NCBI GenBank assembly: GCA_951406725.2
Contig: OX597831.1
Location: forward strand, 61,938,001-62,002,000
Source: Octopus vulgaris
Lineage: Eukaryota
DNA: 64,000 bases
Direction of reading: 5' to 3'
Part shown: piece by piece, positions 31,706-56,673 of the stretch
Position numbering within the stretch: the first letter of the stretch is position 1
Layout: the number at the start of each line of letters is the position of its first letter
The notes under the pieces: model-generated
Seen by the model: only the letters and a program-made list of their open reading frames with translations
Database searches by the model: none
What the model was told of the DNA's origin: nothing
Position numbers and translations under genes: made by a program

Positions 31706-32344
31706 TAGCATAACATTTCCGACGTCGAGATAGAAACTACAGATAAAAATTATTCAAGTTCTTCAAAGTCATTGAGCTCTCCATCTCACTAGAAGAAGAA
31801 CAAACACACCGTAGTTAATTTCTTTGATGTTACATTTGATCTAAGTACCGGCCTATTCGAACCATACAAAATGGTAACGACAACCTTAAATGCATAAACT
31901 ACAGTAGCAATAATCCCAAATGCATAACGGAGTCCATAGTTAGAAATATTTCCGCCCGCACATCCAGACTGTCGGCTGACGAGGAGATATTTAGACTAAA
32001 CGGGAAATACTATAACAAAGCGTTAGAGGGCGCAGGATTCAAAGATAAATTAGTGTACAGCCCTGTGAACCAAGCCAAAAGGGATAAATATAAGATAACC
32101 TGTAGGATCGCAAATTACATCCTTACAAAAATCCATAGCAACCGGACAATCCCCCATAAGGAGGTAGACAAAAGAAGAAAATGGAAGGCTGAATACATAA
32201 TGTACAACTATAAAATATGCAGTTCGGATGATAGTAAAAAAGATACAAACTCGAAGGTATATCAGGATCAACCACATAGTGGAATTAACGCTGAATCTTA
32301 TTATTTCAGAAATAAAAAAAAAGTAAAAAGAAGAAAAAAACAAG

Positions 32345-32469
32345 CGCATGGTTCCGGGTTCAGTTCCACTGCGTGGCATCTTGGGCAAGTGACTTCTACT
32401 ATAGCCTCGGGCTGACCAGAGCCTTGTGAGTGGATTTGGTTGACGGAAGCTGAAAAGAAGCCCGTCGTA

Positions 32470-37699: not shown

Positions 37700-37916
37700 A
37701 CAGCCCAGTGCTTCATTATGTTGATAAGCCTAGTACTTATTCTATTAGTTTGTTCTTGTGAAACCAGTAAGTTTTGTGGATGTAAATAAATGAACAGCAG
37801 TTGTGAAGCAGTGATGAGGGCGAAACACAGACACAAAAACACACACATACACTTAAATATATACATATATATACGATTGATTTGTTTCAGTTCCTGTCTA
37901 CGAACTCCATATATAT
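37700..37916 (-). mobile_element. SINE family B fragment, host of the RTE insertion
   Basis: AAGCCTAGTACTTATTCTAT...ACACAGACAC...TTTCAGTTCCTGTCTAC. Confidence 0.7.
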
Positions 37917-40450
37917 TGTTGTTGGCATCCTTTTTGTCTCGGGAGACAATGGAGTTCCGCATAAAATAATTTAGTCCGGCTTTTACATTTCATGTCCTAA
38001 TACATCTCCTGCTGTGACTGTGTAATCCTATCCTGGACAAACACTCCCTCTGGCAGGTGCCACAAATATAGTGAAGACTTTGCCTGGCTAGTTGTAATGT
38101 CATACTTTCTTGTTGACGTTTTTTCTTGTCTTTCCATTTCTCCTCTCCCTCTATGTCACTCCTTTGTGTTCCCTCTTTTACGGTACGTCGCCAATCTCCA
38201 CGGTTGCTGGCAACTGCTTCCCAGTTGGTAATATTGATGTTGCAGGAATTCATGTCCCTTTTGCAAACATCCTTGTATCGTAAGAACGGACTACCCACAG
38301 ACCTATCCATCTCATACGTCTTTGTGTGAGGAGTGTAAACATGCTTGGTATTCCTGCTTGCTTGAGGACATCTTTGTTGGGGACATGATTGTGCCATTTG
38401 ATGCGAAGGCAGCGCAGGTGAAAGATATTTAGTCGACGTATGGCGTCGTATGGCATGTGTATGGCGTCCAAGTTTCACTTCCATACAATAGAGTGCTAAG
38501 TACACATGCCTAGTAAATCTTCATTTTTGTGGTCTTGGTCAGCTCATTGTTGTTCCATGCCCGTTTGGAGAGTTGGGCCATCAAAGCAGCTGCCTTGCCA
38601 ATGCGTATATTGAGCTCTTTATCAAGGAATAGGTTTTAGGTGACGGTAGAGCCAAGATAGGTAAACTTCTCTATTTCCTGTAGTCTGTCGTCTCCAATAT
38701 GTATGTTTGGGATGGTCGATGTAGCCTGACCCATGATATTGGTCTTCTTGAGGCTGATAAATAAGCCAAAGTTGTCACATGCTTGCTCAAAACAGTTTAT
38801 GAGCCTTTGTAGGGCTTCTTCTGTGTGTGATACCAGAGCGGCATTATCAGCAAATAGCAACTCCTTGATCAGGACGCTTCTGATTTTGGTCTTGGCACGC
38901 AGACGCGAGAGAGTGAACAGTTTCCCATCACTTCTACTGTGCAGAAACACTCCATCATCTGATGTTACAAAGGCATGTGACAGCGGCAGCGAGAAGAAGA
39001 TGCCAAGTAATGTAGGAGCAAGGACACAACATTGCTTTACCCCATTTTTTATTTAGAAGGCGGCTGATGTTGAATCATTGTGATGTATGGTGCCTTTCAT
39101 ATCACCATGGAAAGATGTGATGATTCTTTGGTGGACATCCGATTTTTTGGAGCAGGATGAAGAGGCCTTTGCTACTTACCAAGTCAAAGGCCTTTGTCAG
39201 GTCAATGAAGGCTATATTTAATGGCATTTTCTGCTATCTGGACTTCTCCTGAAGTTGGCGTATGGAGAATATCATGTCAATAGTTGAACTGCTTCTTCTA
39301 AAGCCACACTGCGAATCTGGATAAATTCGAGAAGCAAGCAGTTGCAGCCTGGACAGGATAATTCGAGCAGACGCCTTTCCAACAGTGCTTAGAAGAGATA
39401 TTCCACGGTAATTGTTACAATCACCAGGTCACCTTTGTTTTTGTAAGGCGTAATGATATTAGCATCCCGCATATCCCGAGGGACTGTACCCTCTTCCCAG
39501 CACTGACACAGAAGCTCATGAATGTGCCGAAGCAGGATGGTGTTTTTGCCGGTTTTGATGATCTCTAAGGGGATGCCGTCTTTTCCCGGAGCCTTGTTAC
39601 TTGCTAGGGAGTCACTAGTCTTGGTGAGCTCTGCTATAGGTGGCAGACTGTCAAGTTCACACATGACAGGAAAGATCTTCACACCCTAGATTGCAGCCTC
39701 AGCTACCCTGGTCTCTCGTGAGTAGAGATCCTGGTAGTACTCCACCCATCTATCCATTTGCTTACTTTGGTCCTTGATGAGATCCTCAGTAGTTGATTTC
39801 AGAGGGGCTGACTTGGTTGTGGATGGACCGAGGGCCTTCTTCAAACCGGCATACATCCCACGTGTGTCGCCACCGTCAGCAGCTGACTGGATACTCTGAC
39901 AGATTTCCTGCCAATACCTATTTTCAGAGCGTCTGGCAGTCAGTTGGGTTTTATTTCTTGCCTTTCTGAGTTCTTCGAGTGACTTTATAGAAGAATCACT
40001 CTTGTATTACATCAGAGCTGCACGCTTTGTTTCGATAACTGTTTCCAGCTCTAAGAGCCCAGCACTGAACAAAATCTGGGTTTTGCCTTTCTCTCATGCA
40101 AAACATTGTCGCAGGGTAGGGTCGGAGGTTCTGGCAGTTTTAATGTGTGGTCGGCCCATTTTCTTGGAGTGATGGACTTTTTAGGCAGAATCCTCACCTT
40201 GCTTCTTATTAGTAAATGATATGTGTCACAATCCGCGCTGTGGTAACTACGAGTCAGTTGAACAGAATTCAGAAAGGGTCTTCGTGTAATGATGAGATCC
40301 AGCTGATGCCAGTGGTTTGATCTTGGATGTCTCCAAGATGCCCTGTGGCATGTCTTGTTGGCAAAGAATGTGTTAGTAATGCACAGGTTATGGTATGTGC
40401 AAAATTCAAGTAGTCTCTGGCCATTGTTATTCATGTTGCCAATACCAAAG
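37917..40450 (-). pseudogene. RTE-clade (BovB-like) LINE, 5'-truncated and frameshifted
   Basis: APE: NNNGQRLLEFC...WRHPRSNHWHQLDLII...SADCDT; RT: KAPGKDGIP, CWEEGTVPRDMRDANI, ELLFADNAAL; C-terminal CGTCQRECLSRIGLHSH; 3' CCATTGTCTCCCGAGAC...GATGCCAACAACAA tail. Confidence 0.93.
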
Positions 40451-40626
40451 CACATACACTTACATGTATACATACATATATATACGATCGATTTGTTTCA
40501 GTTCCTGTCTCCGAAATCCATATATATATATATATATATACATATATTTAAATATATATATACGACGAATTCTACGGTTGGCTGTCGGGTATGTTATATT
40601 GTGTTTTTTTCCTTACATGTCTTGAG

Positions 40627-40687
40627 TTAGTTGCACTGAAGAGCATATTCTGCATTGATTGCGAAATCACAGGTGATATGTAACTAA
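40627..40687 (+). ncRNA. Type I hammerhead ribozyme H2-1
   Basis: Stem I TTAGTTGCA/TGTAACTAA, core CTGAAGA, stem II GCA...TGC, GAAA, stem III TCAC-AG-GTGA, triplet ATA (predicted cut after 40678). Confidence 0.85.
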
Positions 40688-41117
40688 TTTCTGTTTTTAA
40701 ATGACTTGCTTCGAAGTTTTGCTTTCGGTAAAATTTGTTTATTTTAGTAGTTTTGACTGCAAGGGTCCCTCCTAGCGTGTCGGTACATATGAATAATAGT
40801 ACCCTCTATATAATATTAAAAAAATATTTTCAAAGTGGAAAAATTTACAGATTTTTTTCTCTTACGAGGTTTTTCACGCTAACTACTGATAATTTCTTAT
40901 AAAGATTTTATCCTTAATTTTAAATTTATATTTTTCACCGGAATAGTTCAATACTGAACTTTTGTTCCGAATAGACAAATTGGTACCGAAATGCATTGCG
41001 AATAGGCCCGCCATTTTCATAGATATCTAAAGATAAACATTCGTACATGCTACGACGAATTCTACGGTTGGCTGTCGGGTATGCTATATTGTGTTTTTTC
41101 CTTACATGTCTTGAGTT

Positions 41118-41184
41118 CGTTGCACTGAAGAGCATAGAATGCATATTCTGCATTGATTGTGAAATCACAGGTGATATGTAATTA
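41118..41184 (+). ncRNA. Type I hammerhead ribozyme H2-2
   Basis: Same core; stem II closed by G-U and 10 nt longer; predicted cut after 41176. Confidence 0.75.
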
Positions 41185-41304
41185 AATTCTGTTTTTAAAT
41201 GACTTGCTTTGAAGTTTTGCTTTCGGTAAAATTTGTTTATTTTAGTAGTTTTGACTGCAAGGGTCCCTCCTAGCGTATCGGTACCTATGAATAATAGTAC
41301 CCTC

Positions 41305-41358
<54 letters not shown>

Positions 41359-41363
<5 letters not shown>

Positions 41364-41523
41364 AAATTTAAAGGACTGACCACTAAAAGTGGACGGTCAC
41401 TATGCTAGATATAGACGTCAAAATCGCTATTTTCCACGAAGAATGCGTTCTCAAGCGATTATGACGTCTATATCTAGCATATTGAACGTCCACTTTTAGT
41501 GGTCAGTCCTTTAAATTTTGTAT
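41359..41523. repeat. Near-perfect inverted repeat, ~70-bp arms and ~25-nt loop
   Basis: 41359-41428 vs 41454-41523. Confidence 0.9.
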
Positions 41524-41656
41524 GTAAAAATATTTTAATCTTCGGATTTCTTTAATATGCTAGGCCACTGGTTTTAATTGATTAATATCAATTTCTACCC
41601 TTATTCAATTTTTTTATATATATATATATAAATAAATAAATATATATATATATATA

Positions 41657-42209
41657 TACTAAGTAATTAAGGGTTTAGCAACGAATTGCCTCACCAACAC
41701 ACCGAATTTAGAAATAGCAGTCAAAGAGATATAGCTATTCCTTCTACTAAAAGGGGGATCTCAGTAAAAACACAGCACTTGAAAGGCAAACACAGACAGG
41801 TAAGAAAGAAAGAATGAAATGACGGCAATCTATCATGCAATTTTAAGTTACCTACGGACGTACGTTTCGAGATCAAGTTTTAGGATAGCATAAGAATTAG
41901 AAAATTCTACTTTACCCAAACTTCTTCTCTCATCGGCGCAGGATACCACAATTATGAATAATTGTATATTAAATTTTGAGATACTAGAATGCATCATCTC
42001 AACTCAGTGTCAGAGCGAGCCAAAGCATGACCAGTACCACGAAATTCAAAGTTTGAATGAAAGTTTGTGTCACCAGCCCCCTTTCAAGTGCTGTGTTTTT
42101 ACTGAGATCCCCCTTTTAGTAGAAGGAATAGCTATATCTCTTTGACTGCTATTTCTAAATTCGGTGTGTTGGTGAGGCAATTCGTTGCTAAACCCTTAAT
42201 TACTTAGTA
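41657..42209. repeat. Perfect 130-bp inverted repeat flanking an HHR-containing spacer, family H3
   Basis: 41657-41786 is the reverse complement of 42080-42209. Confidence 0.95.
41851..41942 (-). ncRNA. Type I hammerhead ribozyme H3 (CCGAUGA core variant)
   Basis: Stem I CCTGCG/CGTAGG, core CCGATGA, long stem II GAGA...TCTC, GAAA, palindromic ACGTACGT stem III, GTC triplet. Confidence 0.75.
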
Positions 42210-42314
42210 TTACTTAAATTTTCCTCGAATGGGGCTTTTACATGCCGAAATCTACTTGGTGTAATTGATAATTATCCCTAATTAATTAATTTCACCCTTT
42301 ATTATTACTGATAA

Positions 42315-43095
<781 letters not shown>

Positions 43096-49929: not shown

Positions 49930-50703
49930 TTAGTACGTATTGGTATGTATAGGTGTGTGTGTATTAGTATGGCACATCATATGTGATGTGATGTGTAAAG
50001 TCATGTGGTGTAGTGAGGAGAAGAGGGGGAGGGGGAGAAGAGGGGGGATAGAAGGGGAGGGGAAGAGGAGGGGGAGGAGAAGGGGGAGAGGAGAGGATGG
50101 GGGAGAAGGAAGGGGATGAGGGGGATGAAGGAGGAAAGAGGGAGAGGGGGAGAGAGAAGGGGAGAGAGGGAGTGAGGGAGCAGAGGGAAGGGGAAGAGGG
50201 AGGGAGAAAGAGGGAAGAAGGGAAGGGGAGTAGGGGTGAAAGGATGAAGGACTGAAGAAGTAGGGGTCGGGGGAGAAAGGATAGGTGAGGAGGGGGGAGA
50301 GGGGGTTAGATGAGGAGGGGGGAGAGTTGAGACCAAATGGCGTATAAGAGCGAAGAGAGAAGATTAATTCCTGTTCACGGCGCAAACGGGAATCCGGATG
50401 GCCTCTGTGTAAGGACAAACCGAACACAGATAGGTGTTGCAAGGAGTGACCGGTGGAGCGGAAATGGCGTGAGACCGGTGTGTCGTTCGCAAGGTGGATG
50501 TCACGAAGGTGTTCCGCGAACCGGTCAGCCAAGCGGCGTCCCGTTTGTCCGATGTACAAGGAATTGCAGAGAGAGCAAGAGATGCAATAGATAATATTGC
50601 TGGAGGTGCAGGTGAAGGAGTGGATGATGGGATAGGGTCGATGGTGGGTGCTAGTGAGGCGGGTGGTGTTGGAGAGGTAAGGGCAAGTGCGGCAACGTGG
50701 GCA
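49930..50703 (-). CDS. Uninterrupted but start-less frame: PLE GIY-YIG endonuclease domain plus low-complexity run-on
   Basis: CPRCRTCPY...FTCTSSNIIYCISCSLCNSLYIGQTGRRLADRFAEH...VSRHF...RREQELIFSL.S..PFGLN; frame extends 144 nt upstream of the listed ORF start. Confidence 0.8.
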   Translation of the reverse strand, partial: CPRCRTCPYLSNTTRLTSTHHRPYPIIHSFTCTSSNIIYCISCSLCNSLYIGQTGRRLADRFAEHLRDIHLANDTPVSRHFRSTGHSLQHLSVFGLSLHRGHPDSRLRREQELIFSLRSYTPFGLNSPPSSSNPLSPLLTYPFSPDPYFFSPSSFHPYSPSLLPSFSLPLPLPSAPSLPLSPSLSPSPSFLLHPPHPLPSPPSSPLPLLLPLLFPSPSIPPLLPLPLFSSLHHMTLHITSHMMCHTNTHTPIHTNTY

Positions 50704-50779
50704 TAGATGTATATATATATATATATATATATAGATGTATATATATATATATATATATATTTATTTATATACACAACAA

Positions 50780-55355: not shown

Positions 55356-55589
55356 TGTAAATATATATCAATATATATAAGGGTAGCAAAAAATTCTAGA
55401 AAAAATTCTCCGCTACCACCGGTCTAGTGAGAAGGAAAAAATAGTCAAAGACTATATAATATACATTCAACAATATAAGGAATGGCCATATAGGACATTC
55501 GACTCACTAGAAAGAGCAGCCAAAACTCATACCGCTAAATAGTTGTAATTCTGAAATAGAAAGTGAAATAAAAACGTTTACCCCTTTCA

Positions 55590-55685
55590 TCTCTGGACTA
55601 TGCATAGTTTCGGCAAAACTTTGGCAAATGAATTAATTAAATTAAATTAAATTCATTTACATCTGGCGTGCCTCGTCAGCAGAGA
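55590..55685 (-). ncRNA. Type I hammerhead ribozyme H1-1
   Basis: TCTCTG-CTGACGA-GGCA...TGCC-GAAA-CTATGCATAG-TC-CAGAGA on minus strand. Confidence 0.9.
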
Positions 55686-56059
55686 GCCTAGGACGAGTAT
55701 ATGTCCACGAGGCTATGGTAAAGAAGCCTCCAGTCACATATGCCCTAAATTTTCAAATCTTACCGCAATCGCGCGGTCTACTCAGCAGCAAATATAAACT
55801 GCTGATTTAATTTCAAAATTAGCCAAAGAATCATTAATTAATAAATATAAGGGTAGCAAAAAATTCTAAAAAGAATTCTCCGCTACCACCGGTCTAGTGA
55901 GAGGGAAAAAATAGTCAAAGACTATATAATATACATTCAACAATATAAGGAATGGCCATATAGGACATTCGACTCACTAGAAAGAGCAGCCAAAACTCAT
56001 ACCGCTAAATAGTTGTAATTCTGAAATAGAAAGTGAAATAAAAACGTTTACCCCTTTCA

Positions 56060-56155
56060 TCTCTGGACTATGCATAGTTTCGGCAAAACTTTGGCAAATG
56101 AATTAATTAAATTAAATTAAATTCATTTACATCTGGCGTGCCTCGTCAGCAGAGA
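56060..56155 (-). ncRNA. Type I hammerhead ribozyme H1-2
   Basis: Identical to H1-1, 470 bp away. Confidence 0.9.
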
Positions 56156-56303
56156 GCCTAGGACGAGTATATGTCCACGAGGCTATGGTAAAGAAGCCTC
56201 CAGTCACATATGCCCTAAATTTTCAAATCTTACCGCAATCGCGCGGTCTACTCAGCAGCAAATATAAACTGCTGATTTAATTTCAAAATTAGCCAAAGAA
56301 TCA

Positions 56304-56673
56304 TCTCTCTCTATATAAACGGCAGTTTGTCTGTGCGTGTTTCTGTGTGTCTGTTTGCTTGTACCCTCACCCTGACCACGGCTTTCAACCGATTCTGATG
56401 AAACTTGACACACACATAGCCCAATGTCATAATTCAAAACTAACGCAGCGAAAATTTTGAAAAGTTCCCCCAGTTCTGAAAAAAGTCGATAAAATCGACA
56501 TGGGGTCGAGAATCAGAAACAAACCACAGACTGTCTAGGGGACGCAACTCAACCTTTTTTAACTCAAAAAAAATTTACCATCATTTTTTTGCTATTTTTT
56601 GGCTATAACTCTCTAAAAATGCTTTATAGTTATTTCCCTTACAAACCTGAGCAACGCCGGGCGATACTGCTAG
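56304..56673 (+). mobile_element. 370-bp non-autonomous Helitron inserted into an H1 unit
   Basis: 5' TC, 3' hairpin CGCCGGGCG + CTAG, inserted between A and T of AATCA^TTAATT with no TSD; removing it restores the 470-bp period. Confidence 0.9.

Follow-up and report, generated by a model that had tools for sequence, protein, structure and literature searches.

A 1.5-unit copy of a dispersed hammerhead repeat in a (TA)n tract of Octopus vulgaris, a putative non-LTR retrozyme with the insertion anatomy of Penelope-like elements

The block at 40563-41314 of the window (the whole 64,000-nt stretch of Octopus vulgaris DNA analysed here, contig OX597831.1) is best explained, with a probability of about 0.7, as a 1.5-unit copy of a dispersed non-coding hammerhead repeat, i.e., an animal non-LTR retrozyme, which would have been inserted into (TA)n by the enzyme of a Penelope-like element (PLE) acting in trans. 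The repeat is referred to as H2. Its family has a hammerhead whose stems covary among diverged copies, and insertions whose 3' ends fall almost always at one of two sites, A and B. The features in the window are as follows.

40520..40562, strand not applicable: left (TA)n flank, the target microsatellite
40563..41052, plus strand: unit 1 (5'), with a 5'-truncated start and (TA)n immediately before it
40627..40687, plus strand: hammerhead copy 1, core 40636-40642, AUA 40676-40678, predicted cut after 40678
40679..41176, plus strand: predicted cut-to-cut monomer RNA of 498 nt, a candidate circle if cleaved and ligated as proposed
40802..40816, plus strand: site A within unit 1, the fixed 3' end of 87/186 arms in the family and putative start of reverse transcription
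40817..40931, plus strand: "tail" between sites A and B, with site B at about 40931
41053..41314, plus strand: unit 2, partial, stopping at the fixed site A and followed by (TA)n
41116..41185, plus strand: hammerhead copy 2, core 41125-41131, predicted cut after 41176
41300..41314, plus strand: site A where the window insertion ends, from the mapping of fixed 3' ends
41315..41361, strand not applicable: right (TA)n flank, the target microsatellite

The H2 block and its family

The preliminary description of about 1.5 units of a tandem repeat embedded in (TA)n was accurate, with the repeats at 40563-41052 and 41053-41314 and (TA)n on either side. The two repeats are about 93-94% identical to each other, differing by 2.9% substitutions plus a 9-nt deletion, and together they make up one arm ending at site A. 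This copy belongs to the older of two subfamilies and is old and slightly decayed. The unit has a GC content of 0.32 and a longest sense frame of 46 aa; its antisense frame is not conserved between the subfamilies and has no credible Pfam match, and an open reading frame with reverse transcriptase and GIY-YIG endonuclease, the mark of an autonomous PLE, is absent from it. A second tandem repeat in the window, H1 (470-nt unit, 55370-56304, minus strand), had been described as lacking extended similarity to H2, and the comparison agrees (best local score P = 0.34, 500 shuffles; blastn E ≥ 0.055). H1 ends at a pyrimidine-then-TATA motif resembling site A, thus H1 likely shares the mobilisation route of H2 despite the lack of extended similarity.

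The family was searched in its own genome (2.8 Gb), where a first look gave 2711 candidates, the best 40 of which were scored. A 22-mer over the hammerhead core has 332 exact matches, a 21-mer beside site A has 344, and a looser hammerhead pattern has 1217, sister families included; the control gave 0 in each case. The spacing of tandem matches gives a monomer length of 485-498 nt, and 42 of 492 positions distinguish the two subfamilies. H2 is thus a dispersed family with hundreds of scattered copies and fixed 3' ends, as opposed to a single-locus duplication. Assembled contigs from seven runs presumed to be RNA and one unlabelled run cover the H2 unit, strand, ends and circles not being visible in contigs; those from the presumed RNA runs carry the labels of three organisms, and one contig of 249 nt spans the cut site. 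None of the runs containing the unit is registered as RNA. No published account of this family was found in the literature searched, and repeat libraries such as Repbase could contain it.

Sister retrozyme families, 72-78% identical to H2, were observed at nine further loci (L243, L244, L248-L250, L253, L257, L258 and L265). They have the A and B ends and the stem III of H2 and differ in stems I and II; in one of them, stem II is short and the unit recurs every ~459 nt. In the window, H2 sits in the TA run that ends the right copy of an 84-bp direct repeat (85%; 37833-37916 and 40444-40527). The direct repeat flanks a decayed minus-strand LINE with an RVT_1 match at 38639-39052, which we take to be RTE-like, and looks like a long target duplication.

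The hammerhead and its conservation

Both window copies contain a type I hammerhead with the core CUGAAGA, GAAA, UCAC-AG-GUGA and the triplet AUA, so that the core, stem III and triplet first given for copy 1 are confirmed in the sequence, and all type I core positions (C3-U4-G5-A6-N7-G8-A9, G12-A13-A14-A15.1, U16.1-H17) are present in both. The two plus-strand hammerheads, with predicted cuts 498 nt apart as initially proposed, are exactly the matches that a hammerhead descriptor finds in the 64-kb window, as compared with 0.02 per shuffled window (100 shuffles); the descriptor is strict and misses H1. The 9-bp stem I described for copy 1 does pair there, but it depends on an A present in 1 of 120 family hammerheads and is thus a private variant, the family form being 6 bp followed by a pyrimidine mismatch and further pairs beyond. 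Copy 1 also lacks 9 nt of stem II that are present in copy 2, which shortens the stem, and gaps at this place occur in 2/120 copies. In copy 2, stem II is full, but C11.1 is changed to U and there is one more change in stem I. UCAC/GUGA would close a loop of only 2 nt, therefore the monomer has three pairs plus A15.1-U16.1, or stem III forms between two copies. The AUA triplet, named in the heading of the preliminary description, is no peculiarity: it is the natural triplet before the cut of the ELVd (+) hammerhead (PMC1636495), albeit in a viroid context, where it is the slowest of the four triplets assayed in the ELVd (+) work (PMC1636495). AUU and AUC occur too among related hammerheads.

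In 120 full hammerheads of the family, systematic variation of the core is confined to N7 (A in 67, U in 33, C in 18), and N7 (A/U/C) is also the sole core change between the two subfamilies. Covariation was evaluated in 15 hammerheads hand-picked for diversity, including sister families 72-84% identical. Ten of 24 pairs, in 43 cells, are changed on both sides, and 92.9% of cells pair as compared with 30-37% in slid controls. The double-sided changes affect five pairs in stem I and five in stem II; stem III is invariant, being fixed by the search pattern. Core and stem covariation are thus kept among relatives, as the preliminary description had anticipated, and they support a real hammerhead under selection, with three stems and an open stem I. 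In the second subfamily, the stem III segment is a perfect palindrome and A replaces G at 10.1. The stem III 10-mers of the two forms self-pair at -9.0 and -13.6 kcal/mol and neither makes a hairpin alone, which suggests that two copies may together form the hammerhead, as described for newt and ASBVd (PMC6155905) and for axolotl (PMC7229834). On these models, the H2 hammerhead would probably be helped by a two-copy stem III.

Several observations weigh against the main reading, including those on a lizard PLE and on Xenopus retrozymes cited below. The window copies have no hammerhead match in Rfam, either at the gathering score or at E ≤ 10, which is not a biochemical criterion, and the hammerhead is not the predicted minimum-energy fold, its constrained ensembles lying 3.6-7.3 kcal/mol higher. 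The Rfam result, together with an unremarkable local folding score of the block (z = -0.58), would also fit a repeat that arose in place, by tandem duplication or by expansion of a satellite, and that resembles a hammerhead by chance. Such an origin is contradicted by the dispersal of hundreds of copies, their fixed 3' ends, the covariation and the chance rate of 0.02 per window; its probability is negligible, and we reject it on dispersal and covariation. The predicted H2 monomer is strongly self-paired (z = -5.5, 25 shuffles).

Insertion anatomy and the template

The ends of the insertions were mapped at 165 loci, 155 with the repeat and 10 being copies of another element. The loci are a non-random sample of best hits and first-listed matches of exact patterns, partly chosen for an intact hammerhead. 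Collapsing 167 insertions by breakpoint signature left 123 distinct events with 186 arms. The 3' ends are at site A in 87 arms, at site B in 87 and elsewhere in 12, and TA-rich DNA follows 144 of the 174 arms ending at A or B. Sites A and B are about 105-115 nt apart (in the window, A at ~40816 and ~41314, B at ~40931), and in contigs from other runs (TA)n begins right behind the position of 40931 in 4/4 runs. In the predicted fold of the monomer, each site lies in an AT-rich single-stranded stretch just after a hairpin. The preliminary description had proposed permuted start and end points as the sign of a circular template. With 174/186 arms ending at two fixed sites this prediction fails at the 3' end; the 5' ends are scattered round the whole unit, which is what any 5'-truncated retroposition gives.

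The 123 events comprise 62 one-armed insertions (29 ending at A, 30 at B and 3 elsewhere), 59 insertions with two inverted arms and 2 of other form. The inverted arms are tail-out in 59/59, and all 53 pairs with both ends classed combine A with B (29 B/A, 24 A/B), a strict pairing for which no published description was found in the literature searched. No LTR layout occurs among the 123 mapped insertions, and the marks of a PLE-mobilised element, i.e., partial tandems, 5' truncation, an inverted 5' copy, a tail at one end and a (TA)n target, are all found in the H2 family. Twin priming of the L1 type, in which the long arm would start just past the priming site of the short arm, was rejected, since it fits 6/59 pairs, at chance level (P = 0.35). 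Near-equal 5' ends are found in 16/59 two-armed insertions (P = 0.002), and fold-back may therefore make a minority of the inverted insertions.

Such end anatomy, which is that of PLEs, could also be expected if the H2 copies were not stand-alone retrozymes but pLTRs, the terminal repeats of an autonomous PLE so far unfound, truncated at the 5' end. Homology between retrozymes and pLTRs is reported in Xenopus (10.64898/2026.07.22.740005), and the first look scored the best 40 of 2711 candidates. Beyond the hammerhead, however, the arms run into another H2 unit, for up to 2.7 units, and not into an open reading frame; tblastn with two PLE proteins matches 3/165 loci, in short separate fragments; and the sole open reading frame inside a copy belongs to a separate insertion with a target duplication. 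We consider this origin quite improbable.

Turning to the template of the retrozyme favoured here, the suggestion that reverse transcription proceeded beyond one unit over circular or multimeric RNA was borne out: 55/186 arms are longer than one unit, the longest being 1328 nt (2.7 units), and 34/186 span at least two cut sites. The junction contexts are exact in 117/138, the rest being mostly single substitutions plus a few false matches. Reverse transcription mostly passes over the cut site, and with exact junctions this means that the template is ligated or uncut, not a cut linear monomer. Stops of 5' ends within 8 nt of the cut site (13/146 passages versus 81/1518 nearby) are in slight excess, in a sample partly selected for an intact hammerhead.

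Sequence variation among the repeats was then compared within and between insertions. Repeats belonging to one insertion diverge by 3.1% and 1.65% (26 and 19 loci), as compared with 5.6% and 4.7% between insertions. Minor alleles occur in both repeats 125 times versus in one 35 times, and in both arms 243 times versus in one 20 times. Those differences that recur at several loci have no direction (52 the same way, 58 opposite), and derived alleles are split 151/147 between upstream and downstream repeats. Forty-six rare variants are common to all copies in one locus, where 0.6 would be expected, a count to which a few loci with two nearby insertions contribute, and 301 are in one copy only. 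The repeats of an insertion are thus homogenised without position-specific inheritance, which favours a monomer template, and a new mutation present in all repeats requires a one-unit bottleneck. Since a linear-only cycle cannot lengthen arrays and a one-unit bottleneck is needed, a circle is the simplest account of both. As judged from these patterns, the template would be a monomer, probably circular. The homogenisation might also stem from gene conversion or from source arrays that are very young and homogeneous. The shared variants carry no signature of RNA editing (A>G 5, T>C 12; P = 0.78), and without an A-to-G excess the double reading of one physical molecule is not proven.

The same H2 family and PLE enzyme could also have used as template a linear read-through transcript of several units that stays uncut; the hammerhead would then be dispensable for insertion, and no circle would be used. 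Uncut RNA is the dominant substrate of a lizard PLE in the in vitro assays reported (PMC11167929), it fits the exact junctions and the read-through equally well, and the predicted ground state has a fold other than the hammerhead. On the other hand, each insertion has its variants homogenised over all its repeats, and their inheritance is not position-specific; a purely linear cycle could make arrays shorter but never longer, whereas arms of 2.0-2.7 units are found; and the hammerhead is preserved by compensatory change across diverged families. An uncut linear template is thus unlikely, although it is the most serious competitor of the retrozyme reading with a cut and ligated monomer.

Under the latter reading, multi-unit H2 copies would be transcribed, the hammerheads would cut, probably aided by the two-copy stem III, and the monomer would be ligated into a circle. 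A PLE protein would nick both strands of a TA tract, priming would be internal, at site A on one strand and site B on the other, and the reverse transcriptase would run round the RNA until it drops off; in the window copy, a single arm started at A would have been kept. More tentatively, with slightly less than even chances, a PLE-type protein dimer on one circular ribozyme RNA may prime both nicked strands, at A and an obligatory B about 105-115 nt apart, while rolling round the circle. If true, a single rule would account for PLE tails, inverted arms and partial tandems, and the insertions would be direct genomic evidence of retrozyme circles as templates.

Known systems and a candidate enzyme

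On the marks that can be read from sequence, H2 appears to be an animal non-LTR retrozyme of known class, non-autonomous and PLE-mobilised in behaviour, and not an autonomous PLE. As in the metazoan non-LTR retrozymes described from coral, mussel and axolotl (Cervera and de la Pena 2020, PMC7229834), a type I hammerhead is present in each short, low-GC, non-coding tandem unit, the copies are dispersed, and the predicted monomer is highly self-paired; the dimer-dependent ribozymes of axolotl and newt likewise have a weak stem III. The H2 monomer of 485-498 nt exceeds the unit range of 150-450 bp given for metazoan retrozymes (PMC7229834), but falls within the 51-972 bp given in the 2026 preprint (10.64898/2026.07.22.740005). 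Unlike the retrozymes of PMC7229834, H2 has short arrays (≤2.7 units) and no target duplication visible in (TA)n, and its circle is only a candidate. The sections of PMC7229834 compared contain no description of fixed A/B ends or two-armed insertions.

The movement of animal retrozymes is a hypothesis in the discussion of PMC7229834 and in the 2026 preprint, where non-LTR retrozymes are proposed to be PLE-derived and PLE-mobilised (Li, Clavereau and Pollet 2026, bioRxiv 10.64898/2026.07.22.740005). The evidence presented there is co-occurrence and pLTR homology in vertebrates, whereas that from H2 is insertion anatomy; both element types are present in the Octopus vulgaris genome, and extended pLTR homology was not found for H2. 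Eight of nine Xenopus retrozyme dimers did not cleave in the assays of the preprint (10.64898/2026.07.22.740005).

The EN+ PLEs are reported to show partial tandems, 5' truncation, an inverted adjacent copy and a (TA)n bias, with a tail of 30-40 bp "often only at one end", the origin of their tandem and inverted insertions being described as an open question (Craig et al. 2021, PMC8557442). For a lizard PLE in vitro, both strands are reported to be nicked and extended, reverse transcription is initiated internally on the RNA, at two sites by which the tail is delimited, and hammerhead mutants still insert, uncut RNA being the main template (Frangieh et al. 2024, PMC11167929). Partial tandems, truncated 5' ends, an inverted copy, a one-end tail, (TA)n and a hammerhead upstream of two start sites are thus common to H2 and the PLEs of these two accounts. 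Unlike these PLEs, H2 has no open reading frame, its tail is about 105-115 nt as compared with 30-40 bp, and its hammerhead has full stems II and III in place of the minimal form. The A+B pairing is counted strictly in H2 (53/53), whereas the PLE accounts say that the tail is "often only at one end". This pairing is a countable rule that an in vitro assay can test, and the H2 family offers a small, defined substrate of ~490 nt with two mapped start sites and a candidate long-ORF partner in the same genome.

The genome carries at least two young PLE families. In the first, PLE family A, RVT_1 and GIY-YIG are encoded in a frame of 1214 aa. Its 4475-bp unit, with frames to 1214 aa, ends in (TA)n and has 17191 candidates; a piece of this very young family lies in the window at 49930-50760 (minus strand) and others at L226 and L232. 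No hammerhead was found in it with the search pattern used, and as a motif-sharing partner of H2 it was rejected for lack of a significant shared motif (P = 0.18).

In PLE family B, the frame is 722 aa long and contains RT-like and GIY-YIG motifs; it has no significant match in Pfam, and its Atlas neighbours carry HTH_animal in 31-99% of their members; as a guess, we take it to be perhaps of the Hydra clade. Its terminal motif has 5043 exact matches in the genome. A hammerhead is present in PLE family B, whose copies are flanked by (TA)n and end at two fixed sites separated by 73 nt; its inverted pairs are A+B in 15/15. Its A site resembles that of H2 over about 24-26 AT-rich nt (P = 0.024 with 500 shuffles, in one of three comparisons). 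Beyond this short A-site motif, the H2 unit has no extended similarity to 60 PLE-hit loci, among which no autonomous partner sharing the unit was found. From these sequence features, PLE family B is a candidate partner of H2.

Copies of PLE family B were seen at L231 and L266-L295, and a distant relative lies in the window at 31840-32415. Many of its insertions with two arms are very small: each arm breaks off 20-50 nt upstream of the terminal motif, within the hammerhead of the family or immediately ahead of it, unlike the arms of H2. A 1.7-kb open reading frame between H2 units (L031/L032) was rejected as the autonomous partner, as it interrupts a unit, with a target duplication of ~17 bp, and is found without H2 in 10 further copies. 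This 1.7-kb element (L031:3073-4750 and L032) contains one gag-like open reading frame with a degenerate zinc knuckle by eye and no Pfam match, and forms its own family with 763 candidates, some copies being in partial tandems.

Two neighbours of the H2 block have a paired structure of their own. At 41656-42317 of the window, a tail-out two-armed insertion in (TA)n has arms 100% complementary over 131 nt and no match to the hammerhead descriptor; its right arm is about 105 nt longer, which gives the A+B layout of H2 in unrelated sequence. Right after the (TA)n flank of H2, at 41349-41533, there is a hairpin with 80-nt arms that are 93% complementary, possibly a short two-armed insertion or a MITE.
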